Below the pieces are notes generated by a model. It saw only the letters and a program-made list of their open reading frames with translations. It did no database searches and was not told where the DNA came from. Shown here one piece after another: positions 9,463 through 58,922 of a stretch of 64,000 bases of DNA (position 1 is its first letter; each line of letters starts with the position of its first letter). The translations under genes were made by a program, and so were the position numbers. This DNA comes from Euprymna scolopes. Lineage: Eukaryota. The stretch lies in NCBI GenBank assembly GCA_053919585.1, contig CM132786.1; one strand, given 5' to 3'.

Positions 9463-11350
9463 TGAACGAAACAAACAAAGTTAAACAATTCTTCAGTAAA
9501 CTGAACCTAGATATATCAATAGACCCAAACCACAAATGTGTAAACTTCTTAGACATAACACTGAATCTAGAAAACAACTCCTATGAACCCTACCCAACCA
9601 AACGCTATTCTACATCGATCACAAGTCCAACCATCCGAATAGTATGAAAAAAGCACTTATACCTAGCATCTCAAAAAGAATATCCAAAATATCACAAAAT
9701 GAAGAATTATTCAATAAAAACAAGGAATATTACAACCAAGCCTTAGCTAGATCAGGATATAAGGAACAAATTAAATTTGTTAAGGAAACTCAAAACAATA
9801 ACATAGCTACAGAAAGAACAATAAATAATGCAAATGTAATATCTTACAACATGTCGATGAGGAAATATAAAAAAAGGAAAATAAGAGCAAAAACAAATGA
9901 AAAAATAAAACATGCAATAAACACGAAAAAGAAAAATGAAAAGATAGACCATTATAAAACTGAGAGAGAAGTTAAAAAGAAAAATAGAAGAAGGAGCTAG
10001 ACGTGGTTTAATCAACCGTTCAGTCACAATATAAAAAAATAACATCCCAAGGGAATTTTACCAAATTATAGAAAAAAAATTCCCGCAAGATAATAAACTA
10101 AGTAAGATAATTAATAAAAACACTGTTAAACTATCTTTCTCAACCTCTACTAACTTAACAAATTCCATAATTGGCTCAAATAACACAAAATTAAACAAAT
10201 TTTTGAAAAACAGAGATAGGACAGAAAATGAATGTAACAATGTAAAAGAATGTAACTGCCGGGACCCTAATGAATGTCCAATGACGGGAAACTGTTTAAC
10301 TTCAAACGTAGTATACAAATGTGAATTTATTACAAATAATGAAACTAAGTATATCTGGGGAGCACCGAAACTTGCTTTAAGCACAGATATCTTAATCACC
10401 TAGCATCGTTTTAAAGTGAAACTGAGAAAGAAAAGAACACCAAACATAACGAAAACAACAACAATGTGAATAAAAAGAAAAATGAAAACATCGGTAGAAA
10501 GAATCATAACAAGAGTGACAACCACAACTACTATAACAAAAATAGAAACAGAACCAATAGCGAAAACAACCGGAAGAAAAACAAAGAAAAACTCAATTAA
10601 AGGAAAATAAAATTGGATATAAATTAAGGTGGTCAATAAATAAAGGGGGGAAAATATAAACCTAGCAAATCGAAAAGATTCAACCTATGTATATTAGAAT
10701 CTTAACATATATTAATATCAAAACAAAAATTATTAAACAAAAGACTAGATGTAATCCACGGGTGTTTGCACAGAAACAAATATTTAATTTCACGCACTAG
10801 AGCATATTAGGAATAAATGCAAAGGAGGTAATCCTAGATAAAAAAATGATACCACAAGAGTGGCCTCCACTGCATCGGGTAATATAATACGAATTAAAAC
10901 ACTAAGCAAAAAAATATATTAAAACAAACACGCATAAATATAGGAATAAAATTATATAAAATTATGATAACTGGGAAAAAATAGGAAAAACAGGTAAAAT
11001 TAAAACAAAAATAAATAATTAATAAATAAAAAATAAAAATACAAAAGTACGGGTTAAAACGGAAAACTATCTTTAGATAACACCAAAAGATGGAGGAAGT
11101 GAGGAAGCATGGCTGTGGAAATCTTTTTATCCGAATACGATGTCTAGCATGTTTAAAATATACCATTTGTTGTAAAAATCTTATGGATAAACATCTGAAG
11201 AAGTTGGTGGGGACAGGATATTTTTACGGAAACATAAATCGTAAAATTGACACTAATTAATGAAACAACTGTAATGGAAAAAGCCAGGAAAAAACGAAGG
11301 TTACAAAGAAGAAAACGTGAGTGTTTGAATTTTCAACAAAACTTTGCACT
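9463..11350 (+). mobile_element. Penelope-like retroelement (Naiad-like architecture), 5'-truncated: RT thumb, linker, GIY-YIG endonuclease, 3' pLTR
   Basis: VNFLDITLNL..SYEPY, YIDHKSNHPNSMKK..SISKRIS, YNQALARSGY, KIINKNTVKLSFS, CNCRDPNECPMTGNCLTSNVVYKC..KYIWG, NLC..LLNKR..GCLHRNKYL; frameshifts and A-rich expansions. Confidence 0.9.
11192..11276 (+). ncRNA. Type I hammerhead ribozyme motif in Penelope 3' pLTR
   Basis: CAT-CTGAAGA-[long stem II: AGTTGGTG/CACTAATT, TTTTACG/CGTAAAA]-GAAAC-AACT-GTA-ATG; stem I CAT/ATG is short. Confidence 0.6.
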
Positions 11351-11956: not shown

Positions 11957-12361
11957 NNNNNNNNNNNNNNNNNNNNNNNNNNNNNNNNNNNNNNNNNNNN
12001 NNNNNNNNNNNNNNNNNNNNNNNNNNNNNNNNNNNNNNNNNNNNNNNNNNNNNNNNNNNNNNNNNNNNNNNNNNNNNNNNNNNNNNNNNNNNNNNNNNNN
12101 NNNNNNNNNNNNNNNNNNNNNNNNNNNNNNNNNNNNNNNNNNNNNNNNNNNNNNNNNNNNNNNNNNNNNNNNNNNNNNNNNNNNNNNNNNNNNNNNNNNN
12201 NNNNNNNNNNNNNNNNNNNNNNNNNNNNNNNNNNNNNNNNNNNNNNNNNNNNNNNNNNNNNNNNNNNNNNNNNNNNNNNNNNNNNNNNNNNNNNNNNNNN
12301 NNNNNNNNNNNNNNNNNNNNNNNNNNNNNNNNNNNNNNNNNNNNNNNNNNNNNNNNNNNNN
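11957..12361. other. Assembly gap (other gaps: 16381-16513, 45365-45498, 46211-46359, 55578-55914)
   Basis: Runs of N. Confidence 1.
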
Positions 12362-12384
12362 CTATCATTCAATTTTATTTAGAA

Positions 12385-12790
12385 CTAGCCTGAGTGGCAG
12401 GAATCGGAGTTGTGTGTTAAGAAAAGAATATGGTAGTAGGCAGGCAGGAAGGCTCGAACCCGTACTGCGAAGGAGGAAAAGAACGTGAAAAAATAAACGT
12501 AACGTCTTTACCGTTGCGTCCCGAAGTGGCGAAGGTTTAAATTAAGTCTAGTCAGTCGAAAAGAGAGGATGACTTTCAAATATCGACGAAAAAAGTTACC
12601 CCTCCCTGTAGAAATGTGTCCATGTAAAGGTGAAAGAATTAATGTGTTCAGCTAATTTTCGATACTTGTCGTCTGAAGGTTAGAGACTCGTAAAAAAATT
12701 GTCGCTTTGGTCGAAAGTTTTAGGCAGACATAAAAACATACATACATAAATACATGCATTTTAACAGACAGGTGAGATGCATATTATAGA
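12385..12790 (-). mobile_element. Non-autonomous Helitron, array unit 1
   Basis: Minus strand starts TCTATAATAT and ends CTAG|T; body homologous to units 2 and 4 and to 43266-43688. Confidence 0.8.
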
Positions 12791-13228
12791 CTAGACTGGG
12801 TGCTCGGCGTTGCACGAGTGTTTGAATGTGTGTGTTCAGCAAAAAAGAAGGTAGTTGTATGTAGGTAGATTGAACCCGTAAAGGAGGAAAAAAACGTGAA
12901 ATAAAACTGACGTTTTGCTGTTGCGGCCAATCGCCAAGCCGGCAAGCGTAGGTTTAAATTAAGGCTAGAAAATTGAAAAAAGGTAAGACTTTCGAAAATA
13001 TCGTCGAAAAAAGTAATCCCTCCCTGTAGAAAGTTCCCAGTTGAGGCTGAAGGAATTAATGTATTTGCCCAATTTTTCGATAGTTGCCGTCCGAAGTGTT
13101 GGGCTTCAAAAATTATACAAATTTCGTGAAATACTATTGCATCTCTCGAAAGGTTTAACCAGACATACAAACAAGCAAACATACACACATACATTTAAAC
13201 AGACAGGTGATATTTATATTATAGAAGA
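12791..13228 (-). mobile_element. Non-autonomous Helitron, array unit 2
   Basis: 5' TCTTCTATAATAT; subterminal hairpin CTCGTGC-AAC-GCCGAG; 3' CTAG. Confidence 0.85.
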
Positions 13229-13875
13229 CTAGCGGGGGTACCCGGCGTTGCCCGGATGTGGTGAGGTGCGAATGGGTAAATAGAAACAGAGTGGAAAATA
13301 AAGCAATAACTCTGTTTAAATATTATAACTTCTTTTTCAAGTAAAAAAAAACAGCAAACGTGATGCAAAATAAATAATAAGTAAATGATGTTAAAACTTC
13401 GTAAAAAAACAGCTAATGTGATGGAAAAATAAAAAGAAGAACGAAAAAAAAATCACCGGAATAACCCTGTTTCAATATTAAAAATGTAAAAATCGAAAAA
13501 AATACACCCTATATCTCGTGTCGAACGTGCAATCTTAAGATAACGACGCTGCTACTATAACGACTGGTCAATGACAGCATGAGCGAAATTAAGTCGTTTT
13601 TTTATATGACACTAATTCAAGAAAGAACGTTTTTGGGGACTCCGTGTTTGGCCAAATTGGCATAAAGGAACGATTGTTTGCTACTCATCATGCAGAAAAG
13701 TTTCCAGTTGGGAGTGAAGGGATTCGAGTTTTTAGCTAATTTTTCAATATTTGTCGTCCGAAGGGTCGTGCTTAAAAATAATACCAATCTCGTGAAAATC
13801 CGTCGCCTCTGTCGAAAGTTTTAGGAAGACATACAAACATACATACATTTAGATAGGCGATATGTATATTATAGA
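13229..13875 (-). mobile_element. Non-autonomous Helitron, array unit 3 (shared 5' module, different 3' half)
   Basis: 5' TCTATAATAT; hairpin CCGGGC-AAC-GCCGGG; 3' CTAG. Confidence 0.85.
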
Positions 13876-14260
13876 CTAGCCTGGGCGGACGGCGTTGGCT
13901 GGGTGTTTGTAGGTGTGTGTTTAGCAGTAAAAAAAGGTGATAATGGGGAGGCAGGCTCGAACCCGTGACGCACATGCGGAAAAGACAGTGGAGTTGTTCG
14001 TAAGGTTAAGGATTAACCAAAAATATAAAAAAAATACACACAGAAAATTGCGAGCGCAAAAGTGGTAGAGTAGGCAGGCAAGATCGACCCCGTGGCGCGA
14101 TGAGGAAAAGAAAGTTTTTTAAAAAGTGAAACGTTAGCTGCTGCACCCATCGCCAAACTGGAAGTGGGGTAGGTATAAATTAAGGCTACACAAAGTTTTT
14201 GCGAAACATGCGTATATAAATACATATATTTAAACAGATAGGTGAGATTTATATTATTGA
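13876..14260 (-). mobile_element. Non-autonomous Helitron, array unit 4 (internal deletion, duplicated B-box segment)
   Basis: Host A|TCAATAATAT at 5'; degenerate GCCAACGCC hairpin; 3' CTAG. Confidence 0.8.
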
Positions 14261-14416
14261 TTAAAAATATTGTTTCGAATTTATTTCCAAATTTAGTCAT
14301 ATACTATTTTTGATTTAAACAAAAGTATGAGAGAATAATTATTGAGAAATGTTAACCCAACTGTTGACGTGGATTGTTTTTTCATGCAAATACACACGCA
14401 CACATACACACACACA

Positions 14417-14450
<34 letters not shown>

Positions 14451-14484
14451 GAGGTGTTTGTGTGTAGTCTGTCTATTAAGTTAC

Positions 14485-15565
14485 TAAAGGGTGGAAAATC
14501 TTTGTCATTTTACCATTAATGGTTAATTTTTTTAATTTCAAATATTTTACAGAAAATATTTCGGAAATAAATATAGCAATGAACAAAGTACGCAAATTGT
14601 GAAATTGTTTTACCAAAATCAGGGGTCAAGTGTTTTGTCTCAAAGATCTTATCGACGGCAATTTCATGTAAACATAGCCCAAGTAAAAACACATTTCGAA
14701 ACATTGTGCGCTGATATGAAGACGATGGAGCTGTACTTGATCTGCCGCTAGCTGGCAGAACTCAAAACGTCATCACAACTGGAAACAGAAAAAAAGTGCA
14801 TGAAAGCGTGGAGCAGCAACTTTGAAACATCAATTCGACAACGTATCACACAAGTTTGAATACATCGAGGCTCACTACATAATATTTTGCACAGTTAGAA
14901 CCCCTTTAGAAACAAGGTTTCAATATGCGGTTCAAATACAAGAGCTTGTCCGAAATGAGCACAATGTTCTGCAAAAGTTGGTTAAATCAGATGAAGGTCA
15001 TTTTCATTTGAATGGATTCGTTAAAAAACAAAATTACAGATTTTGGGGCTCTGAAAATCCAAGAGTAAATCACCAAAACCAATTGCATCCCATAAAGTGC
15101 ACTGGATGATATGCAGTAACGGAGGAGAAGATAATTGGGCATTATTTTTTTGAAGATGAAGACGAAAATGTTGTTACTCGAAAGAGATATCGGACTATGA
15201 TTAAAGACTTCCTCAAAATAGGCACGGATTATAGTCCTGACAAGATAGAGTAACGGCACATACGGCGAGAGAAACATGGAGCTTCTCAGGCACTGCTTTG
15301 GCGAAAGCATTACCTCTCCCTATAGCAATGTCGAATGTCCACCACGTACACTTCACTTGACTAGCCTCAACTTTTTCTTGTAGGGATATATTAAAGAAAG
15401 AGTCTATGTTTACAAACCGTAAACCCTGCAAGAATTGAAGGAAAACATCAACAACGAAATAAGGGAGTAATAAGTGCAATCTATCATAAATAATATTTTG
15501 AAAAGAACATGAATATGCAAAGCTGAAAATGGGAAAAATCTAAGACATTATTTTCATAAATAAAG
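14485..15565 (+). mobile_element. Tc1/mariner transposon fossil (DD41D/rosa-like)
   Basis: TA-AAGGGTG start; SDEGHFHLNGFVKKQNYRFWGSENPR..QLHP.KCT, IIGHYFFEDE, degenerate CPPRT..LT.LNFFL.GYIK.RVY..KP.TLQELK. Confidence 0.85.
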
Positions 15566-15669
15566 ATTGTTTGAATTTTGAATTTTTTGTTATAAGTTAG
15601 TAATGTCTTAGTATTAAACTTACAGAAAGATATCATCTTTTCTCTTCTTTCTTTCTATCTATTCTCTAT

Positions 15670-16321
15670 TCTATATAAATAAAATGAACTCATTTTTTCC
15701 AGTCGGATTTTGACCTTAATAGGATTAAAAATCAAGATATTTCATGCAAATATAATATGCACAAACGGCAGAACAATATCTGAGGTGTGTTATAGGCTTA
15801 TTATTTCTCAAATTCCTCGATAATCTTAGATTTCTATACTTTTTCTGCTGAGAAGTCACGGCCAAAATCGGTTAAGATCAATGGAAGTGGTAAAATATTT
15901 TCTCTCTAATAAATTCCTCCTCTCCCTGCCACCACTTAACACCGTTTGGAGATCGTTCACAAGGAACAGTTGAGAAGAGAACACCGGTTTGACTTCGTAG
16001 TTCTTTCATGTGAAGTTATTTAAAATCACTAAACTAAGCTGAAGTGCTCTGTGGCGTAGTGGTTAGCGTGCTAGACAATTTACATTATATTTTCACGTTC
16101 GCGCCGACCTACCGTAGTCGTTTTTTTCCCCCCCTAAACAACTGGAATGGACTTTTCTTGGTGGCCGAACTGTTAACGTTGCAGATGTTTTTTTTTCACA
16201 CTTTATTTTCCTACTTTTACTCATGACTCCGGGTTTGATCCTTCCTACTTACCTACCATAACATTTTTAACCCCCCCGTCCCGGAAACAAACACTCGGAC
16301 AACGCCGGGTACCCCTGCTAG
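15670..16321 (+). mobile_element. Non-autonomous Helitron (second 5' family, 3' end shared with array family; carries tRNA-like segment)
   Basis: 5' TCTATATAAATAAAATGAACTC; 3' CTCGGACAACGCCGGGTACCCCTGCTAG|T. Confidence 0.8.
16045..16110 (+). promoter_or_regulatory. tRNA-derived Pol III A-box/B-box segment inside Helitron
   Basis: A box TGGCGTAGTGG (16052-16062) and degenerate B box GTTCGCGCC (16097-16105); no complete cloverleaf. Confidence 0.55.
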
Positions 16322-16524
16322 TCAAATACAAAGAATTTATTTAAGTTTAATACCCTTAAGTAACTTTTTGGGCTACCTGTNNNNNNNNNNNNNNNNNNNN
16401 NNNNNNNNNNNNNNNNNNNNNNNNNNNNNNNNNNNNNNNNNNNNNNNNNNNNNNNNNNNNNNNNNNNNNNNNNNNNNNNNNNNNNNNNNNNNNNNNNNNN
16501 NNNNNNNNNNNNNTTATTTTCGTC

Positions 16525-16590
<66 letters not shown>

Positions 16591-16849
16591 CGGGGGTAAA
16601 GAGTAGAAGAGAGTAAATTCAATTCTATAAGAGGAGATTTATCGGGAAAATATAAAGCTGAACAAATGTCAATGGAATTTATATAGGAGACAATAGGAGT
16701 GGAAAATGAATTCACAAATTTTATATATTGGAAAATATAGAATGAGTCATTTATTTAATAAGTTCAGTTGTGGGAAAAGAGGACGTTGTAGTAATTTCGT
16801 TTCTTCGTGTATTTTATTTTTTGCAAACAAATGATTTCAGCTTAATTTA

Positions 16850-18340
16850 ACCTAGTTTTGTAGTTGTCCTCTTATTTCTTTACAATATAAATATTCACGA
16901 ACTGACAATCGTATTTCATTATTTTCTTCATTAATTTTTCGTCAGCCACAACTGTTCGTTGTCTGTTGAGTAAATGCAAATTAACTGCTGTCTACACTTA
17001 AGAAAGCTGCAGTTTTGTAAATAAAACTCGTAAAATATGCTTAAATATGATATTTTGATTAATGCAGATTTTGTATCATATTTTACCCAGCATATAGTAA
17101 TGATTAAAAAAGCCCGTGTGCCATCCCCCAGAATTGAAAGCTTAGCTTACGGTTTACTTTTTCCTTTGACCTTAATGCTTGAGCTATTACTATTTACTGC
17201 AAGACTAAAAATTATAATATAAACTGGTCAATGTGCTCCGTAGGTACCTCCAACACACGCCACAGTTTTACCCCTCCCATGTAACACAATGTAACTGTAA
17301 TTTAATTTAATATTATCATCCTAAAAGAAGAGGCTTCAAATAAACTACTAATATTAAAAAAAAATATGGCATACGAAAATAATGGAATTGCGAGACTAAA
17401 ATCGTGTTTACATTAACGCTTTATTTAGTGACGTTTTTGAAGCCGTAAACATACCCATGTTTTAAAAAATCTAATAAAAATCAAATCATATTTTCCTGAA
17501 AATTTCAATATTTATCCATTATTAAATAAGCTTACAAATTAAAAATAGATTTTGTTAAATATATTAGAGGAAATATTTTCTAGGTGTTCTACTCCCCTAT
17601 ATTTCATGTTACGAAAATTAAACAGAATAAATGTAGGTCCATAAAAATTTTAACATTTTGAAAAGCTGAAAAGATCAAATGATTAAAAATTAGTTATATA
17701 TAAATTCTTTATTTCACTTATTTGTAAGTTGTAAATAAATTTAGACATAAAGTCAAGATTATTCCGTTATTTTAACGTAATAATCTTGACTTTATGTCCA
17801 ATTTTAAATGAATAAACACTTTCTTGATAATTTTTCTCGGTAATATAATAATTGGAATTACAACAAAAAAATAGATAAAACAGAATTAAAGAAATATAAT
17901 TTTTATTTTAAGGAAGGAAAATGTAAAGTTTTTTTGTTTTGTTTGTGCTTTTATTTTGAACCAATGTAAAAGTAAGCGTGGTGCGTTTCACCTAAATTGC
18001 AGTTCAGTTTTTATAGAAACCTAACCCAGTGTTCGTCCGTAATTGTCTTCTGTGAAGGATTACGGGCGGTGTAAATGGATGGCGGTGGAAGTATGAATTT
18101 ATTAGAGAGAGAAGAATTTACTACTTCCGTTGATCGTAATCGATTTTGGCAGTGAACTCTCCCCAGATAAAATATAAGAAGCTCCAGTCAGCGAGGTAGT
18201 GGATAGGTAATATGCTTATAACACGCCTCAGATAGCCCGATGCAGTTTGTGTACAGTACATCTGCATAAAATCTCTAGATTTTCAATACAATTAAGGGCA
18301 AACACTGAGGGGAAAAATGAGTTCATTTTATTTATATAGA
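16850..18340 (-). mobile_element. Helitron with the same 5' module as 15670-16321 (3' boundary uncertain)
   Basis: Minus-strand 5' TCTATATAAATAAAATGAACTC; about 320 bp homologous to 15670-15990; tRNA-like segment at 17110-17190 shared with 48472-48555. Confidence 0.6.
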
Positions 18341-18804
18341 TAGAAGAAGAGGAAGAAGAGAAGAGATAACAATAAGAGCGTTCGTGTGTCTGTGTATTCA
18401 ACTCTCATACAGCATACACATGATGATAATCCAACAATTAATGATGGTGCACACAATTTCGCAATGTTAAGGACACAGGTCAATGCCGTACATTATGTAT
18501 ATATATACTTTCCTACAGCCCACAAATCTGGACCGATCATGATTATACCAGGCATAATAATGGTATCTGGCCTAGAGATCGTGCATACAATGTTTCAAGA
18601 TCAAAGCCTTAGGTCATATTTTGATCGGCTGTTCATAAACTCCCCAACCAAGTAAGGATTCGCTAACATTCCGGGGGTCACCACCATGACCTCGGCCAAC
18701 CTTTGTTTGTGAATTTGAATCGGCTTACTCTCCTTAACATCCATATTATCAAAATCTTTATCGAGTTTGGCATGATAGGGGCCAGTAACATAGACATCAT
18801 TTTG

Positions 18805-18902: not shown

Positions 18903-19585
18903 ATTATCATGTTGTATATTATGCTGTATATTATCATGTTGTATATTATCATGTTGTATATTATCATGTTCTATATTATGTTGTATATTATCATGTTGTA
19001 TATTATCATGTTGTATATTATGTTGTATATTATCATGTTGTATATTATGCTGTATATTATCATGTTGTATATTATCATGTTGTATATTTTCATGTTCTAT
19101 ATTATGTTGTATATTATCATGTTGTATATTATCATGTTGTATATTATCATGTTGTACATTATGTTGTATATTATCATGTTGTATATTATCATGTTGTATA
19201 TTATGTTGTATATTATCATGTTGTATATTATCATGTTGTATATTATGTTGTATATTATCATGTTGTATATTATCATGTTCTATATTATGTTGTATATTAT
19301 CATGTTGTATATTATCATGTTGTATATTATCTTGTATATTTTCATGTTCTATATTATGTTGTATATTATCATGTTGTATATTATCATGTTGTATATTATC
19401 ATGTTGTATATTATGTTGTATATTATCATGTTGTATATTACTATGTTCTATATTATCATGTTCTATATTATGTTGTATATTATCATGTTGTATATTATCA
19501 TGTTTTATATTATCATGTTGTATAGTATGTTGTATATTATCATGTTGTATATTATCATGTTGTATAGTATCATGTTGTATATTAT
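18903..19585. repeat. Minisatellite of mixed 15-bp (ATTATCATGTTGTAT) and 12-bp (ATTATGTTGTAT) units
   Basis: Directly visible, about 680 bp; generates the QHDNI/CCILS/MLYII pseudo-ORFs. Confidence 0.97.
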
Positions 19586-20870: not shown

Positions 20871-21478
20871 TTAAATAACTGAAGAGGTATCAATGCATTG
20901 CGGTTATAATAGCAAACAATACTTAAAAACTTTTCTAATTATTAATAAAAAAACAGGAATATCTCGACATTCGAAAAAAACCTCCAGTATCCACTTTTCG
21001 ACTTCCTTAATGTTTAATGCCAAGTATCTGGTTTTATATATGAGTTTTTTTTTACACGGCTATGTTTTCAAGCATCGTCTTCTCAGACAGAAAATTATAC
21101 TCACATTTCCTTCTTTTTTTTCTGTTTGTAGTTTTATTTAAAGTCTACAGTTATTTTCTTTTAAATCTTTCTTTGTAAAATAGAGTTCCATGTTTACGTT
21201 TTCATTATTTCCTCCATCATATTTGTTATATCGTTGATGAGGTGGTGCGTTTTTTTTTATAATTGGTGCGTTCGTTCAATTTATATCGATGCCCACAATA
21301 GACGTAATGTCGACTGTACTTTTTTGCGTAAATTACTGCGATTCAGTTTTTCAATGTTTTTTCTCTTCTTGTTTACTAGTAAGACATTTCTATTACATAG
21401 ATATCGGACTTATTTTTCATTTTCTTACTATTGCCTCAATAATTTGGCGGGGTAAAAAATGTGTCATATATATTTACA

Positions 21479-21559
<81 letters not shown>

Positions 21560-21561
21560 TA

Positions 21562-21945
21562 CTAGCATGGGTGCCCAGCGTTGCCCGGGCATTTGAAGTT
21601 TTATGTTGAGAAAACAAAAAACGGTCAATTTTTTTAAAGTTTGACCCCTATTATGGCCACTTAACATTTACTGTTTTGGGGTCAAATCAAGTTAGATCCA
21701 TGTCCAAGGAACCTATATCTAAATGTTCAAGTGTTTAGACCCAAAATTGGCGGAGGAGTTTGGGAGAATTTTGAAAGGCTAAATCGTTAAACTTTGACCC
21801 CTTAACAGCCAAATTTCTGGCCGAAAATCGATCACATAGATTTTCCCAAATCTCAGTACCCTGTATAACAAATTTCGAATCTATAGACTAAAAATTGACA
21901 GAGTCATGGCGTAGGGAAATGTACGCACACATACAGACACGTTCA

Positions 21946-21950
<5 letters not shown>
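21562..21950 (-). mobile_element. Non-autonomous Helitron (third family) inserted in (TA)n
   Basis: Minus-strand 3' end GCCCGGGCAACGCTGGGCACCCATGCTAG|T; 5' end merges into (TA)n; (TA)n on both sides. Confidence 0.75.
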
Positions 21951-21999
<49 letters not shown>

Positions 22000-37049: not shown

Positions 37050-39050
37050 CTTGCAAGTCCCACTCTCCCTAATGGTTTAATTCCACATCTGCAACTGCCA
37101 TTGCGATAAGGCAGTACGCGTACCACCAATTTTACCCACATAAATCCAGTTCAAATAGACAGAAGTATATAAAACCCAGAAGTAACAGCAAGAATGAAAT
37201 AGCGACAGCTAAGAGAGAATTTACTGAAACCACCAAAAAAACGCATCGTACACAAAAAGTGGGAACCCGTGACTTCTGGAAAATCTACAACAGTCTAGTA
37301 AATAATGGGCAATCAACAATTCCTCCACTAACCAGCAATCATGAAGTTGTGTGCTCGGCAACTGAGAAGGCTAACATGCTTGCCAGTCGGTTTGCCTCCA
37401 ACTCCACACTGGACCCTGCTAACCACCCTTTCTCAAACTATCCTTTGCGGACAGACGCCACACTAGACGATCTGAAAATCACCCCTTCTCAGGTGTATGC
37501 TATCATAAAAAATCTTGACACTTCAAAAGCATGTGGACCATATCTCATCTTGGCTGTGCTATTAATAAAGTGCTCCGCCGAAGTAGCTCCAATCCTCTCC
37601 AAAATTTATAACAAATTACTTAATCAATCTTGCTTTCCTGCCTGTTGGAAAACTGCTTCTGTGGTACCAGTTTTCAAGAATTCTGGCGAAAGAACTAACC
37701 CATTAAATTACCTCCCATTTTTTGCCACAATATTTGAGTCCATAATTAACCAAGCTCTAGTCAACCACCTTACAGATGCTAAACGTCTGACCGACCAACA
37801 ATATGGATTTAGGCAAGCCCGTCCCACAGCAGACATTCTAACTGTAATCTCCGATCGTATATACCATTCATTTGACAAAGCACGGGGGTAGAGCGGTAGC
37901 TCTATATATATCTAAGGCTTTTGACAGGATATGGCATGAAGGTCTTCTCAGGAAAATCAGATCATGGAAGAATACTTAACATAATTAAATCCTTCTTAGA
38001 TAAAAGAAAAATCCAGGTTGTCCTCAATGGTCGCACATCTAAACAATATGATATAAATGCGGGAGTGCCTCAGAGGTATATCCTCGGACCTCTAATATTA
38101 TTAATATTCATAAATGAACTCCCTAACAAAATTGTCTGTGAGATGGGTATATATGCTGATGACACCGCGTTCTATAACAGACACAACAGGAAAACAAATG
38201 CGCGCTTATCTAAAGAAATGAGAGAAACACTAGAGGATGACCTCTGATCTGTAGTTGAATGGGAACAAAAGTGGATGGTCACATTCAATGCTGCCAAGAC
38301 TAAACTTGTTCCCTTCAATAACTACAAGAAACCTTCTCTACCACCAATAGCAATGGCAAAAGACTCTTTATCTGAAAGCGCATCTTTTAAACTCCTCGGC
38401 CTTACGTTCACAGCAAACATGAGTTGGAACAATTACATTGAGAGCATTGCCAGGACCGCTACGAAAAAAGTAGGTTCTTACCGTGCTAGAAAGCTACTAA
38501 CGCCCGAAAGTATCCTGTACCTCTTTAAGGCCACCATGTTCCCATGTATGGAGTATTCTTGTCACATTTGGGCCGGTGCATCTGCTACTAGTCTCTCACT
38601 TCTAGACAAGGTTCAAAAGAGAGTCGCCAACCTAATACGTCCTGAACTGTCATTCAACTTTCAGCATCTGTCCCATCGACGTAATGTAGCATCTGGCTGT
38701 TCTACAAGTACTTTAACGGTGAATGTTCTGACGAACTGCAAGCACTTGAATCCCCTCTACGTAAATACCCCCGACAAACCCGACGAGCAGTAAAATCCCA
38801 CCCCTTCACAGTAGAGATCCCTAGTTGTAAGAGAGCCTTCTACGCCAGTAGTTTCTTCCCCAGAACTGCTAGACTTTGGAATTCCCTCACAGGTTCTTGC
38901 TTCCCCAACTGCACTGACATGCAGAGTTAAAGTGTAACGTGAACCAACATCTTGCATCCCAACTCCCCACCCCTGTAGCCTGTGTCCCTAATTGTAGCCC
39001 CCTACACCAAAGTATCAATGTGCCTTGTTTGGGTGAAAATGTAATAAAAA
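37050..39050 (+). mobile_element. 5'-truncated CR1-group LINE RT (best-preserved copy, several stops/frameshifts)
   Basis: ORFs 37259-37891, 37921-38247, 38275-38793: FPACWKTASVVPVFKNSGER, QQYGFR, GVPQ..ILGP, IYADDT, MEYSCHIWAGA, LSHRRNVAS. Confidence 0.95.
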
Positions 39051-40524
39051 CAGTAGTAAACGAAAAACGTCCATATGTAAATTAGGTGTTGGTGTGAAAT
39101 TGAAAAAAAGAAAAAGGACCACGTTCTCGTGGAAGAAACAAAGTTTATCGAAGAAAATTTAAGTCGAAGGCTCGAAATGGATGCATACAGCCGCCATGAG
39201 GTCGGAGTGAAAAAATTTACACCGTCTGAGACGGGTGATGACGAGAGACATTTTAAGTGGTGTCAAGACTGGAAATTAACCGTAATAAAAATCTTTCTTT
39301 AAAAAAAAAATAAAATGCCGACCCGGATTTGTTTTCTTTCTTTCTTTTGTTTGTTTGTAACTGCAACATTACATATATTTATTTTGGACGTTGTGACCCG
39401 GTCTTTTACTATAATAAGGCTAAATATTAAGAGAAAAATAAAGAAAAAAAAATGTTACAGTGGGACAATGCAATCGAGAGGTGAGGCCTCCCTGAATGTC
39501 AAGTGTGAAGAGATTAAAAATGGGATATTACACCATTGGGTGAGTAAATTTGTTCACTTATTTTCTTCTTTGCTAACTTTCGAATGTTCTTCTGTCCTGT
39601 CAGTCATATTTTTTTATCTTAATTTGAATGGTATAGTCTTACTAGTCGGTTTTACATTATTATAAATACATATGAGTTGTTTATAATTGACTATTAATCC
39701 TGCCATTATTAAAAATGGTTATTAAATAAAGGAAAATTGAATTTTTTAAACTAAAAAAAGAAATAAACATGCTCATTTTTAGCACGGGCTATGCTGTGCA
39801 AATTATAAATAATTTCATTTTAGTCGCGAGGTTTTCTACCGTGTCTGCTGCGTTTGCATGTCAGTATTTTGCTACGTGAATTCAGATAAATACAGAACAC
39901 TGAAATATTAAAATGTAAAGTAGTTTTAATTTTTAAATAAATGCAATACGGTCCTGTGGGATATTTGACATGAAAAACATTTTTTCTTTGTAGCTGAAAC
40001 TCTCAATGACGATAATACGTAACAGTTTGCATTCCCGCTATAGTAGAAAGATGGGTGCCTACTTAATATTTGGGTGCTCATAGTACTCGGTTTAGAGATT
40101 AAGGGTGTAAATTGTACCGTTTTTGTGTAGACAGTCCGAAAGTTGCCGACAGAATTCTGACAACTGATCAAATTTTCAGGATATACACGTAACCTAGCAA
40201 TCCGAAGTTAGTGGCTGTGTTTTGTCCAGTCGGCTTACGAACAAAGAACCTTACAGGATAGCGGAAATTAGAGGGTATTGAGTAAATAAACAGTACCTAC
40301 ATATGATCTATCTGCCGATGCTTAATGATTAGGTTAAACTGTATAGTGGCACGAAAAAGAGTACATGCAATAATTGTTGTATAATGTTGATATTCGATTT
40401 AATCGGGGGCAGGGATAATGCTTCTGCTCTGTTGGGCCAGGTATCAACCATAATTTCTCGCATAATCTTCTCAAACGTTACTGAGAACTTATTAGAAAAA
40501 ATATTCCCAAATTGTTTTGAATAA

Positions 40525-40759
40525 ATATTAATTTATTTTTATTTCGGACTACTAGTCTCATCTTTATTAGTTGTTGTTTTCCATTTTTTTATTGGATTGT
40601 TTATTCACGTTTCGGCCAACTAATTCCTCTGGCCTTCGTCCAAAAAAAAAAAGGAAAACAACAACTAATAAAGATGTGACTAGTAGTCCGAAATAAAAAT
40701 AAATTAATATATATAATGCTCATCTCAAAAATGAATTCCAATTAAGGAATAATATATAT
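40525..40759. mobile_element. Palindromic mini Penelope-type insertion with 14-bp TSD
   Basis: About 65-bp inverted arms (40525-40590 / 40642-40710); truncated hammerhead core on minus strand GACGAAGGCC..GGCCGAAACGT; ATTGTTTTGAATAA duplicated at 40511-40524 and 40760-40773. Confidence 0.85.
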
Positions 40760-43265
40760 ATTGTTTTGAATAATCTCGCCAAACATGGGCTGAGCCGTTA
40801 AGCGTCAAAAGGGGTCGTGGACGAAATAAAAGGTTAGATTAACTAGTGTTCACTCCGATAATCTCGTTAAAACTAACCGAGCAATGAAGAGATAAATTAG
40901 TCATACGACTACGAACAATGTTATGATAATTAGTTTAGTCAAGGATTTCAAGAAAAAAGTTTTAACCTAAATAAAACTCTTTAAGCAGTTGGCGTAAAAA
41001 TCTATTAATGTGCAAGGAGAGATATAAATTGCAAGACTGATAGGATATAGAGGGATGATCGGTGATTGATGCTAGAGAACAAGGAGAAAATCTGCGCTAA
41101 AATAAAGCTCACAAGAAAAATTCTGTTCGTATAAATGCATGTTGAAATGCAATTAATAGATATCTTTAAAGTATAATTAATATATATCTTAATATGTCAC
41201 ATATCTTATCCACAATTTTAAGAATTCATTCGCTAACGAAATGTTCAATGCAATATCGGAATAAGAGTTCAGTTGAATAACATAGCACAATTTATATAAG
41301 ATGCTCATACGCATTACTCTTAGAACCATCAACGTATGTACTGTTTATTCCTTTTTGTTGGATCCTCTTTAATATTATTTTATTTAATAATGATATTTTG
41401 TTCAAAGTCGAGATTAAATACATTTTACGAAATATTCAATTGAGAGAACGTGTTTATCGATTCTGAAGTGCGCTTAGGCGTTGGTTCTACACTATTTAAT
41501 GAAAACGGCAGTTGACACAAATAATTAATTTTCGCATGACAATTAGGTGTTAAGTTGGTGTTTGGCTAATTTTCAAAATATTACTTTGCGTGTTCCTGTA
41601 ATACAGACGAAAATAATTTTTTTTGCTGTAACTAATATTCTTCTTATTATTAGTATTTCTATTTTTATTTAAATACTTGTACAGCTATTATTGTACTATC
41701 ATTGCTGTCATAATATGTAGTAAAATTATCAATTATTAATACGATCTGTTTTTAAGTTACGTTCGTTACATTTGTAACCAAATATATTTCCTTCTGTAAG
41801 ATATATTTATTGTGTGCATGTTTTCGAGGTAAGTAACACACTTTTCACTGCTTTCTTTTATATTTTAAATAAATAACAGAGGAGCGATGAGGCGTTATCA
41901 TTATTTATTCATAATATGGTGTCTAAAAAGCTGATAGTTTAATTGTGTTTGTATGTTCTAGATCATGCCAAAGATCTTTAAAATATTTTATATAATTAAT
42001 GCGCATGATTAAATTTACATATGTAATGTCAATATGGATTACAATACGCCAAATGAATTAATACAGAAAAATACAACATAATTGTGTGTAAAGGAACAGT
42101 TAATTTTTATTTATTTATAGTCTACAGTTATATTAGAAATTACCTTTTAAAACAATATGTAAATATTTTATTTATAACAGGTTCTAGATTATATATTGAG
42201 CAAAAATTAACTCCACCCAACAGAACACACGTTCAATCTATAATAATATTATATTTTCATCAGACACACACACACATTAGTAAGGAAGTAGGTATTAGTT
42301 TATGTTATATTTGTAAACGGTACTTATTTAGAGATATAAACGGTTTTATAGTCAACTTTTCAAATACCATTATAGTCAAAAACACATTGTTAATATTCGG
42401 GGTATTAACCTCTGGGTCTAAACATACTTTTATTTCTAGCAGTTATGGTTTTCATTCCAGTTCTATATAGTTGTATGATTACTCGCACATGCTCCATACA
42501 ACAAAATAACTTTTACATCAGAAAATTAAATTCTGTACGTATGCGAGTCTGTATTTTTTTGTTGTTTTAATTATCAATGTAAAAGATTGCTTGACTATTT
42601 ATCTGTAATCCAAAAAATGCAAAGAAAAAAATATTGACAGCATTCGCATATCTTACATTCTGACAGATTCTCTTAAGTATAAAACATTCAACACGTTGTT
42701 ATCTTAAATTCGATATTAAAGATGTTTAATTCACCCATATGCAAATAACTGCATATTAAACTAAAATATCAATTCTCATACAAAATTCGTGTTCAGTTCA
42801 GACGCTTATACATCGAGAACTGCATATACAGCAGATCCTCACTGTACACCACAAACACTATTCTCTCACTCTACATCACAATACACAACTGGTTATTTAT
42901 CCACACGATCAGACACAGCTGACTATTACTCTATACCACCAGGTAGCTGACGATAAAGTTACGCGCCCTGACATAGCTAACCCTCGCCCTACATGACCAG
43001 AGACTAGTCATTTATACACGCCTAAACACAGATAGTCCTCCGCACATGGCTATGCACATGTGGCCGGATAATATTCACAATTTGAACATTTTCGGATGCT
43101 TACTAAATATTCTGCATAACACAGTGACCATTGTCAAAATATCTTGCTCATGAATTCCTATTTTAAGATATCCATGATATACCGACGCTAACTGAAAAAT
43201 AAAATCATACACTCATCTTGGTCACATCCACTGTACTTTTCGTAATGCTGCACATAGCTTGTAAT

Positions 43266-43688
43266 ATATGATATAAATCTCACCTGTCTGTTTACATGTA
43301 TGTATGCATGTATGTATCTATTCCTAAAACTTTCGACAGAGGCGAGGGATTTTCACGATATCGTTTAGATACTTGACCCTTCTGACGAAAAAGGTAAAAA
43401 TTAGCTAAAAACATTTATTTTTCACCTTTAACTAGGCACTTTTCTACAGGGAGTGGTCGCTTTTTTCGCCGATATTTTCAGAAGTCATCCCCTCTTTCCG
43501 ATTGACTAGCCTTAATTTAAACTTACGTCACTTCCAGTTTGGCGATGAGCGATACAGCAAAGTCGTCACTTTTTCCCCGTTCTTTTCCTTCTTCGCGGCA
43601 GGGGTTTGAGCCTTTCTGCCTATTACCACGTTTTTTTTGCTACACACACCTCTCCAAACACCAGGGCAACGCCAGGCATCCAGGCTAG
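43266..43688 (+). mobile_element. Solo non-autonomous Helitron of the array family
   Basis: Reverse-complement homolog of units 1 and 2 along its length; 3' CCAGGGCAACGCCAGGCATCCAGGCTAG|T. Confidence 0.85.
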
Positions 43689-44139
43689 TCTATTAATATT
43701 TATTTAAAAAATTACAGCATTCGAACGACTTCTTACATGCTTTCGTGTTCTCTCCGTTGCAAAAAAAATATGCTATCTGTCCTCTCCAATTCGAAGTTTT
43801 ATAATATCTAATTCATTCATATGCAACTCAATGCATATCTAATCACATTATCATTAATGAAAACATTTCTAACGTAATAGGTTGATATATTTACTGATAT
43901 TACCACCATTTTTAATTTTGTATTGGTTTTGTTTAATAAAAGGCTCGGGTCTGTCAAGCATTAGCAACTAGGACAAACAGAATATTTTGGTCTCAACTGC
44001 TTAAAAAAAAAACTTGTTTGATAATATAATTTTAACGGTTTAAATGGTAAGTTTTAAGAATACGTGCACTAGAATGTCATATTGAGATTGTATAAAAATT
44101 CGAAATGTGTTGTGTTTTCAATTAAATGAAATATTTGTT

Positions 44140-57525: not shown

Positions 57526-58922
57526 TTGTCTCTTGAGTCTTTACGGAGTCATCTGTCTAATAATATATTAACCCGTTTATTTGTGCAAAATCTGCCATCT
57601 TTATTCCGTGTTAATCCGATTTCGAAACGTTTCTGTTTTATTTTCTTTGATGTTATGGAGGATAAAACTAGTAACTCACAGAAAGGTCTTTGTATCGCAG
57701 CACTTCAGTTTCTTTGGACGGACACATACTTCAAGCAGAATTATGAAACTGACATAACTTGCAACTGTTTATTGCTCTCCTAATGATTTCTTCAGTGTGA
57801 TTCGGAAAACGTGATTAAAGATAACCACTAAAAATTGGGCATTATTTTTACATATCATCGGTAGATTTTACTTGACTGTTTTATCGCATCGTCATTCATA
57901 CATAAATATGATTCGCCGGGAAGATAAACCAATTACGTCATCATGCGAGTGACGTTTCAAAACTAATGTTTCTTACTGTTTTCTCCACATAAATTGATCA
58001 GAAAAGTTTGCAAATTGCATCGTAATGATGACCGAAATTATGTATTCCTGGCATATAAGTTTACTCTTTTCGATGTAGATACTGTTAGCATAGAAATTTA
58101 AAGAATGCAACCCTTACATAGAAATTTTTAAAAAAAAGCAAGCATGCATTAAAAGCAAATATAACTTGCTGATTGTCTGTCTAAAAATCCCAAAGCACAA
58201 AGTCGCTCGTAAACTGTTGAGTTAAAAAAAAAGAAGATTTTACTTTCAGAACTAGCATTGTATGACAAAGCACGCTCCAGGCGAAGTGACCCAGAATGTC
58301 TATGTGAATTCTCAGCAACGGTTTTTAGCCAGGTTGTGTATATGATATATCTGCTTCTAATGCAAGTCAATAGCACAAGTTGATTTCTTTGAAATTATAT
58401 GATGTCAGTATTTGCATCGAAAAGAGGAAACTTACATGTCAGGAATGTATAATTTCGGTCGTCATTACAATGGAGTTTGCAATCTGCTCTGATCAATGCA
58501 ATTTGTTGTGGGCTTGACTAGTCACTATGAAACACACGAGCACGCTCTTTGTATTACGAACGAAAGAGAATATACAGAGATCAACAGTCGTATTACTAAC
58601 GAAAATATTGCGTACTACAAAGTACACATACCACAACGACATTTATTTATACAGTTCGGAAAAGTTCCTATTTCGTGCAAAAACGCACCCCATATAACAG
58701 TAAAAATAGTAAGCTTTACTTTTAGAGAAGCCCTCGTATTTTCATTGTACAGATATTTCTACTTCATCCGACGAATAAAAATAGTAAGTATTACAGAGTA
58801 GATTATGTATAAAACAATTAATACATGATTTGATAAGTATATTTTATTTTCATCAAAAAGAGTATAATAGGATTGTGGCGTTGTCATCATAAATTTACAT
58901 AATAAGAAAGGGCTAAGTCCTA

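Follow-up and report, generated by a model that had tools for sequence, protein, structure and literature searches.

A head-to-tail array of decayed sibling Helitrons in Euprymna scolopes and how it may have been built

Introduction

How do several Helitrons come to lie end to end, all in the same orientation? The question is raised by the minus strand of positions 12385-14260 in a stretch of 64,000 nt of Euprymna scolopes DNA (assembly GCA_053919585.1, contig CM132786.1), which as a whole is called the window here. The initial annotation saw in this locus four different Helitrons, inserted one after another at an A/T site that each arrival re-creates (a slash marks an element boundary), and likened the result to spacer acquisition. 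CRISPR spacer acquisition serves as an analogy, in that polar growth with all units in the same orientation is conceivable for the array.

Non-identical head-to-tail Helitrons and a mechanism of A/T re-use are already known, and the present array is a longer example. Tandem Helitron arrays are reportedly the subject of a 2007 bat paper and a 2016 plant-centromere paper. Such arrays have been described in Myotis lucifugus, Bombyx mori and Xenopus (PMC4067079, PMC2997563, PMC12001565); 43 arrays of 2-7 repeats are given in PMC12001565, most of them minisatellites, and distantly related Helitrons sometimes directly adjoin in bat and maize (PMC4067079). At maize r1, Du et al. 2008 found two non-identical head-to-tail Helitrons and ascribed them to consecutive insertions; of the two routes they named, one re-uses the A/T that borders the resident on its 5' side. 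The pair is polymorphic, with lines that carry both, one or neither, and its order is unresolved (PMC2267711). Three tandem Helitrons were reported from Metarhizium acridum in 2016, together with self-insertion in the Fusarium element FoHeli, and that paper poses the same alternatives, concatemer versus repeated insertion (PMC5148889). The accessible sections of the open-access literature, to which all statements on published work here refer, yielded no study that tests chains of at least four non-identical units for insertion order, and those of PMC4224331 yielded no passage on directly adjacent Helitrons.

Results

Layout of the array

The array consists of four to five decayed sibling non-autonomous Helitrons, placed end to end without host DNA between them. 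Read on the minus strand, it opens with A/TC at its outer 5' edge (14261/14260), passes through three CTAG/TC junctions (13876/13875, 13229/13228 and 12791/12790) and closes with CTAG/T at its 3' edge (12385/12384). The junction positions and the outer A/T site were confirmed as first described, and so were all the lengths of the earlier four-unit division, 385, 647, 438 and 406 bp. There is no target-site duplication (longest exact match 0). An A before and a T after the element are found at the array and at two solitary copies, with a longest duplication of 0 in these; an empty site was not seen. The features, in 5' to 3' order, are:

14261..14261, minus strand: host A of the A/T target site, directly 5' of the array; no target-site duplication
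14059..14260, minus strand: unit 4a, matched by nhmmer (E 1e-10 and 9e-17) with unit 4 left out of the profile
13876..14058, minus strand: unit 4b, made of a unit-2-like 5' subterminal piece (13991-14058) and profile positions 322-434, with a CTAG end
13229..13875, minus strand: unit 3, with family 5' part, foreign middle and family 3' end with CTAG
13226..13228, minus strand: TCT, apparently a stutter, from unit 3's CTAG to unit 2's homologous start
12791..13225, minus strand: unit 2, full-length non-autonomous copy; hairpin with 4/6 pairs
12385..12790, minus strand: unit 1, full-length copy with a CTAG end and a 12-nt deletion in the 3' hairpin
12362..12384, minus strand: 3' flank of the array, with the target T; 23 nt to a gap of 405 N

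The units differ in structure. Units 1 and 2, like the solitary copy at 43265-43688, carry no deletion over 17 bp. Unit 3 begins with 187 nt of the family 5' part (13689-13875) and continues into a middle of ~390 bp (13298-13688) that matches nothing else within the window; its 3' half had been called unrelated, which holds for this middle but not for the last 40-70 nt, which are the shared family end with an intact hairpin (6/6 pairs). In unit 4a, profile positions 1-77, the family 5' end, are joined to positions 249-378 across an internal deletion of ~170 bp, and there is no 3' end; unit 4b has lost its start, and its hairpin has decayed to 2/6 pairs. Profile positions 322-378 are present twice in unit 4, with the unit-2-like 5' piece in between. 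A stretch of 68 nt there matches unit 2's 5' region (P=0.001, 1000 shuffles; one of five targets tried) and also unit 1's 5' region (P=0.005), and the other three targets gave no match. Judged from this arrangement of the sequence, unit 4 is probably two internally deleted units fused, with the junction between them lost, perhaps via later deletions. The number of units is then probably five. Three internal structures are therefore found in one array: full, with a foreign middle, and internally deleted. A motif near the 5' end lies at 62 in unit 4a and the solitary copy, at 70 in units 1 and 2 and at 54 in unit 3, a spacing that is weak as a character because the motif sits inside a 4-nt repeat.

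The statement that no host base lies between the units is exact at two junctions. At the third, the homologous 5' start of unit 2 is position 13225 and is preceded by the three nucleotides TCT, of which the other two junctions have no counterpart. Since two copies of a second subfamily carry longer TCT-type leaders, these bases appear to be not host DNA but a stuttered start of the element itself.

The arrangement is not a product of chance. With 12,806 oriented A/T sites outside elements in the window and up to seven residents assumed, insertion exactly at the 5' end of a resident would happen three times in succession with p about 1.6e-10. Random insertion is thereby ruled out as the cause of the junctions; the arrangement is genuine, and some mechanism produced it. 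CTAGTC is seen 26 times in the window against 16.4 +/- 3.7, and five of the 26 are element ends. A second copy of any array junction was not found within the window.

Where the array ends on its 3' side is uncertain, given the gap 23 nt past unit 1. This gap of 405 N (11957-12361) is about one unit long and may hide another element. The 23-nt flank itself bears a weak likeness to the 5' end of the second subfamily, with an equal score at 1.5% of 4000 sampled A/T sites and at 5.3% of 829 AT-rich ones; possibly it belongs to a further, unassembled unit, and the chain is longer.

One subfamily inside the array, three in the window

The four copies outside the array are:

43265..43688, plus strand: solitary full-length copy of the array's subfamily; begins TA, with A before and CTAG/TC after
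15633..16321, plus strand: solitary copy of a second subfamily, with another 5' end, the shared 3' end and a TCT-type leader; starts at 15633 or 15636
18067-18366, minus strand: 5' part of a second-subfamily copy, with a 5' end other than the array's
21562..21950, minus strand: third-subfamily solitary copy, located in a TA microsatellite, with the shared 3' end; 5' limit approximate

All four 5' ends of the array fit one profile together with the solitary copy at 43265-43688, so that they form one subfamily, and the description of four different Helitrons does not stand. Three of the four copies outside the array belong to other subfamilies, whereas the identifiable 5' ends inside it are all of one. 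A profile scan of the window gave seven 3' ends, four in the array and three solitary, and no 3' end was found for the second-subfamily copy at 18.3 kb. The third-subfamily element lies between two TA microsatellites (21466-21994).

The units are canonical non-autonomous Helitrons, with a TC start, a hairpin, a CTAG end and an A/T site without duplication. TC starts units 1, 2, 3 and 4a, and CTAG closes 4/4 array ends and 3/3 of the solitary ends found. A 6-bp stem lies 11 nt before the 3' end, and 28 of its 36 cells pair across six ends, against 17-42% when slid; this count leaves out unit 1, with its 12-nt deletion, and uses a structure drawn from these same sequences. Covariation in the stem was not above shuffles (105/500), and the hairpins of single ends were no better than shuffles (z 0.58 to -1.93).

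The second-subfamily copies (15633-15690, plus strand, and 18320-18366, minus strand) are 76% alike over 275 nt. Both show A/TC, then 26-37 nt of TCT/TCTAT stutter, then the conserved start. These leaders may have been left by repeated 5'-end nicking, or they may belong to that subfamily's consensus.

Two solitary copies end in CTAG/TC (43685-43700 and 16318-16335, both on the plus strand) with no second unit after, and the flank at 43689 is one base off the family's own first 10 nt. Taken together, the 3' flanks of the array and of the three solitary copies lean to the element's own start (Fisher p=0.027, four flanks). Against an AT-rich background this likeness is gone (0.05-0.69), and it is a hint at most.

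Two possible traces of the second subfamily in unit 3 were rejected. Its 3' end matches that of the second subfamily at 27/31 positions (P=0.097, with 1.45 such matches expected among 15 pairs), and the score of a putative hidden second-subfamily 5' end is equalled by 27% of 465 random stretches of the window. The reading of the units as tRNA-derived SINEs was also discarded: ARAGORN gave 0 tRNA genes in the window, there is no target-site duplication, and the array has no Rfam match, the 18 Rfam matches over 12000-17000 being microsatellite and below gathering score. In an uncontrolled pattern search with one mismatch allowed, units 1 and 4 and the copies at 43265-43688 and 15633-16321 all carry words resembling the Pol III B-box in their 3' part, some of them with A-box-like words upstream. 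A captured SINE or tRNA-like piece is possible, although ARAGORN finds no tRNA.

The window around the array

The window is AT-rich (26-40% GC per 2 kb), with many TA microsatellites, five N gaps and decayed mobile elements. Of its 186 open reading frames of at least 62 aa (low-complexity frames left out), four have a Pfam match, two of them above the curated cut-off, namely DUF4817 and a reverse transcriptase piece. The array elements encode no protein, and a RepHel partner was not seen, as 0/186 frames match a Helitron or PIF1 family. The DUF4817 helix-turn-helix match (14536-14748, plus strand, E 6.5e-5) lies upstream of the array at a distance of about 280 bp, and we take it to be probably a decayed DNA transposase. 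A broken LINE-type reverse transcriptase occupies 37073-38790 (plus strand), with a reverse transcriptase piece at 37900-38244 (RVT_1, E 2.8e-7) and decayed relatives near 5.7 kb, 24.5-25.5 kb and 50.3 kb. Two adjacent frames at 9587-10403 (plus strand), without a Pfam match, may be the end of a Penelope-type retroelement, which they resemble by eye; related direct repeats lie at 1.9/6.7 kb and 3.0/8.2 kb. MITE-like inverted repeats are present at 40521-40714 (arms of 76 nt, 95%) and 57993-58497 (arms of 119 nt, 82%), and a minisatellite at 18903-19585, with ~48 copies of 12- and 15-nt units, gives rise to meaningless long open frames.

Divergence of the units

When comparisons within the array are pooled, 379 of 1447 aligned sites differ (26.2%); between the array units and the solitary copy of their subfamily, 321 of 1286 do (25.0%). 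The non-identity of the units had been taken to argue against a single concatemer, which would be valid only for differences that predate the array. As the divergence within the array is about that to the solitary copy, the differences alone do not exclude an old concatemer.

Units that adjoin each other are not more similar than units further apart (97/388, 45/186 and 16/58). The tree is a star with all five inner branches open, and the star-fit branch lengths are 0.12-0.16. A local clade of the array units was neither shown nor rejected (p-AU 0.322, with one comparison copy). The best tree pairs unit 1 with the solitary copy, weakly (51/53). Among unit 1, unit 2 and the solitary copy, the odd one out is found at 35, 52 and 35 of 122 sites, respectively, which gives a one-sided p=0.043 against a clade of units 1 and 2, under an assumed clock and with a test chosen after seeing the data. 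Quartet counts are flat (3/5/2, 3/4/1 and 3/1/2), with no excess of shared changes among array units.

Along the array, starting at unit 1 and finishing at unit 4a, private changes amount to 18.5, 18.4, 17.3, 22.6 and 20.5%, as scored against the other copies and not a true subfamily consensus. The rates are homogeneous (p=0.79, at low power). The prediction that unit 4 is the youngest is not borne out: there is no age gradient along the array (Spearman p=0.39), and the 5' units are if anything more changed. As far as sequence comparison can tell, equal divergence is as compatible with a single old event and later decay as with a burst of several insertions.

Discussion

We suggest, at a probability of roughly 0.5, that sibling copies, arriving in a single old burst, repeatedly inserted at the 5' end of one already resident, and that the array has since decayed; this reading is slightly favoured over a decayed concatemer or in-place duplication. 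It is favoured because chance placement is excluded, because divergence among the array units is no lower than their divergence from the solitary copy, and because unit 1 groups with the solitary copy and not with unit 2 (35/52/35). Three internal structures in one array point the same way, and so does the TCT stutter at one of three junctions, as one replicating circle would give identical ones. The 5' spacing common to unit 4a and the solitary copy adds weakly to this, as do the flanks that lean to the element's own start (p=0.027) and the maize precedent of a non-identical head-to-tail pair (PMC2267711). Serial insertion at a re-created A/T, as first proposed, thus remains slightly ahead, but the argument first put forward does not hold.

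A possible mechanism can be outlined. A RepHel transposase supplied in trans would nick the plus strand at the 5' end and integrate the element between A and T. The resident's A/TC would then be a valid target and at the same time a site that the transposase binds and nicks; the nick would free a host 3'-OH, which could accept an incoming copy, so that this copy comes to lie immediately 5' of the resident. The brief TCT-type stutters seen at 5' ends are perhaps aborted rounds of this insertion reaction. Every internal G/TC junction may also be a nick site, so that the order of the chain need not equal the order of insertion.

A system for comparison is Helraiser. Its transposase makes a plus-strand nick at the 5' end and generates circles in which the two ends are precisely joined; most integrations are between A and T (PMC4778049, PMC5876387), with a preference for AT-rich 3' flanks (PMC4778049). 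Helraiser/Helibat1 resembles the array in its 5'-TC, its CTAG-3', its subterminal palindrome, its A/T target and its precise junctions; unlike the array, Helraiser is autonomous and active, while no RepHel gene was found in the window. Its transposase also cuts precisely at the CTAG/TC junction (PMC5876387), so that internal junctions might accept insertions as well; this makes an ordered record doubtful in principle, and together with the missing gradient it leaves the notion of a spacer-like ordered record of activity unsupported. In the accessible sections of the Helraiser studies, no preference for its own 5' end was found (PMC4778049, PMC5876387).

Several results speak against repeated insertion. 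A local clade is not rejected, the quartets are flat, and the divergence is homogeneous, as a one-time concatemer predicts. The array holds one subfamily although three of the four copies outside it belong to others. The flank signal is lost against an AT-rich background, the link of unit 3 to the second subfamily is at the level of chance, and 701 Helraiser re-insertions showed no clustering around three donor sites (PMC4778049).

The rival that survives best is an old rolling-circle concatemer or a duplication in place at the donor site, which would have produced five identical units at about one time; for the latter, a new strand would be copied from the nick and rejoined to the displaced 5' end. 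We regard this as a serious contender that falls short of even odds. It accounts directly for the single subfamily throughout and for the star tree with its equal branches of 0.12-0.16, its homogeneity (p=0.79) and a clade that is not rejected. Precise CTAG/TC junctions are a normal product of Helraiser circles (PMC4778049, PMC5876387), and tandem arrays are known in bat, silkworm and frog (PMC4067079, PMC2997563, PMC12001565). However, the foreign middle of unit 3, the deletions of unit 4 and the TCT stutter would all have arisen later, so that four large rearrangements are needed in ~1 kb of units 3-4, whereas the 1.3 kb made up by units 1 and 2 and the solitary copy would have had none. Adjoining units are also no more alike than distant ones, and no excess of shared changes is seen within the array. 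The differences in structure and junction between units tell against a concatemer as well, although later decay could account for them.

A composite origin is decidedly unlikely. Here the block, or part of it, would have been built elsewhere by nesting and bypass of the 3' end, and moved to this locus as one composite Helitron that runs from the outermost 5' end to a downstream CTAG. The damaged internal hairpins of units 4b and 2 (2/6 and 4/6 pairs) would favour such read-through, and unit 4 is like the multiple-termini elements of maize and Fusarium (PMC3288121, PMC5148889) and the fused elements of silkworm (PMC3789558). Yet the hairpin of unit 3 is intact and the deletion is in the hairpin of the last unit, no second copy of any junction occurs in the window, and the question of how the junctions formed is only moved elsewhere, not answered. 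An assembly artefact, in which repeat copies of different loci were joined beside a gap, is extremely improbable despite the five N gaps in the window and the one 23 nt from the array, because units that differ by ~26% would not be mistaken for one another and nothing would lead an assembler to place three joins exactly at CTAG/TC.

The array differs from the published cases. Maize r1 has two long gene-carrying elements (PMC2267711), whereas the present chain is made of four or five copies, all short, old and from a single subfamily; the Metarhizium acridum case, with non-canonical termini, a fungal host and three copies, is also unlike the array (PMC5148889). The arrays of Myotis lucifugus, Bombyx mori and Xenopus share its perfect head-to-tail junctions, but they are usually read as one repeated monomer, while the units here are 26% apart and structurally mixed. 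Polar growth in the same orientation is conceivable, by analogy, both here and for the telomeric HeT-A/TART arrays of Drosophila (PMC6581046). In contrast to CRISPR or HeT-A/TART, the array has no constant repeat, leader, acquisition machinery, host function or sign of chronology.

The array implies no host function. For repeat annotation it carries a warning, as such Helitron chains get merged into false long elements. If chains of mixed subfamilies proved far above chance genome-wide, the choice between concatemer and repeated insertion, left open in the maize and fungal papers, would be directly testable. More speculatively, the family may prefer its own 5' end as a landing site: nicked residents would be open to incoming copies, chains of independently transposed subfamily members would occur genome-wide and grow mostly from the 5' side, and TCT-type leaders would be aborted events. 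We consider this unlikely on present evidence. If true, self-targeting would be a new property of Helitron integration and a step in integration by RepHel, and self-targeted chains would give a relative chronology of subfamilies.
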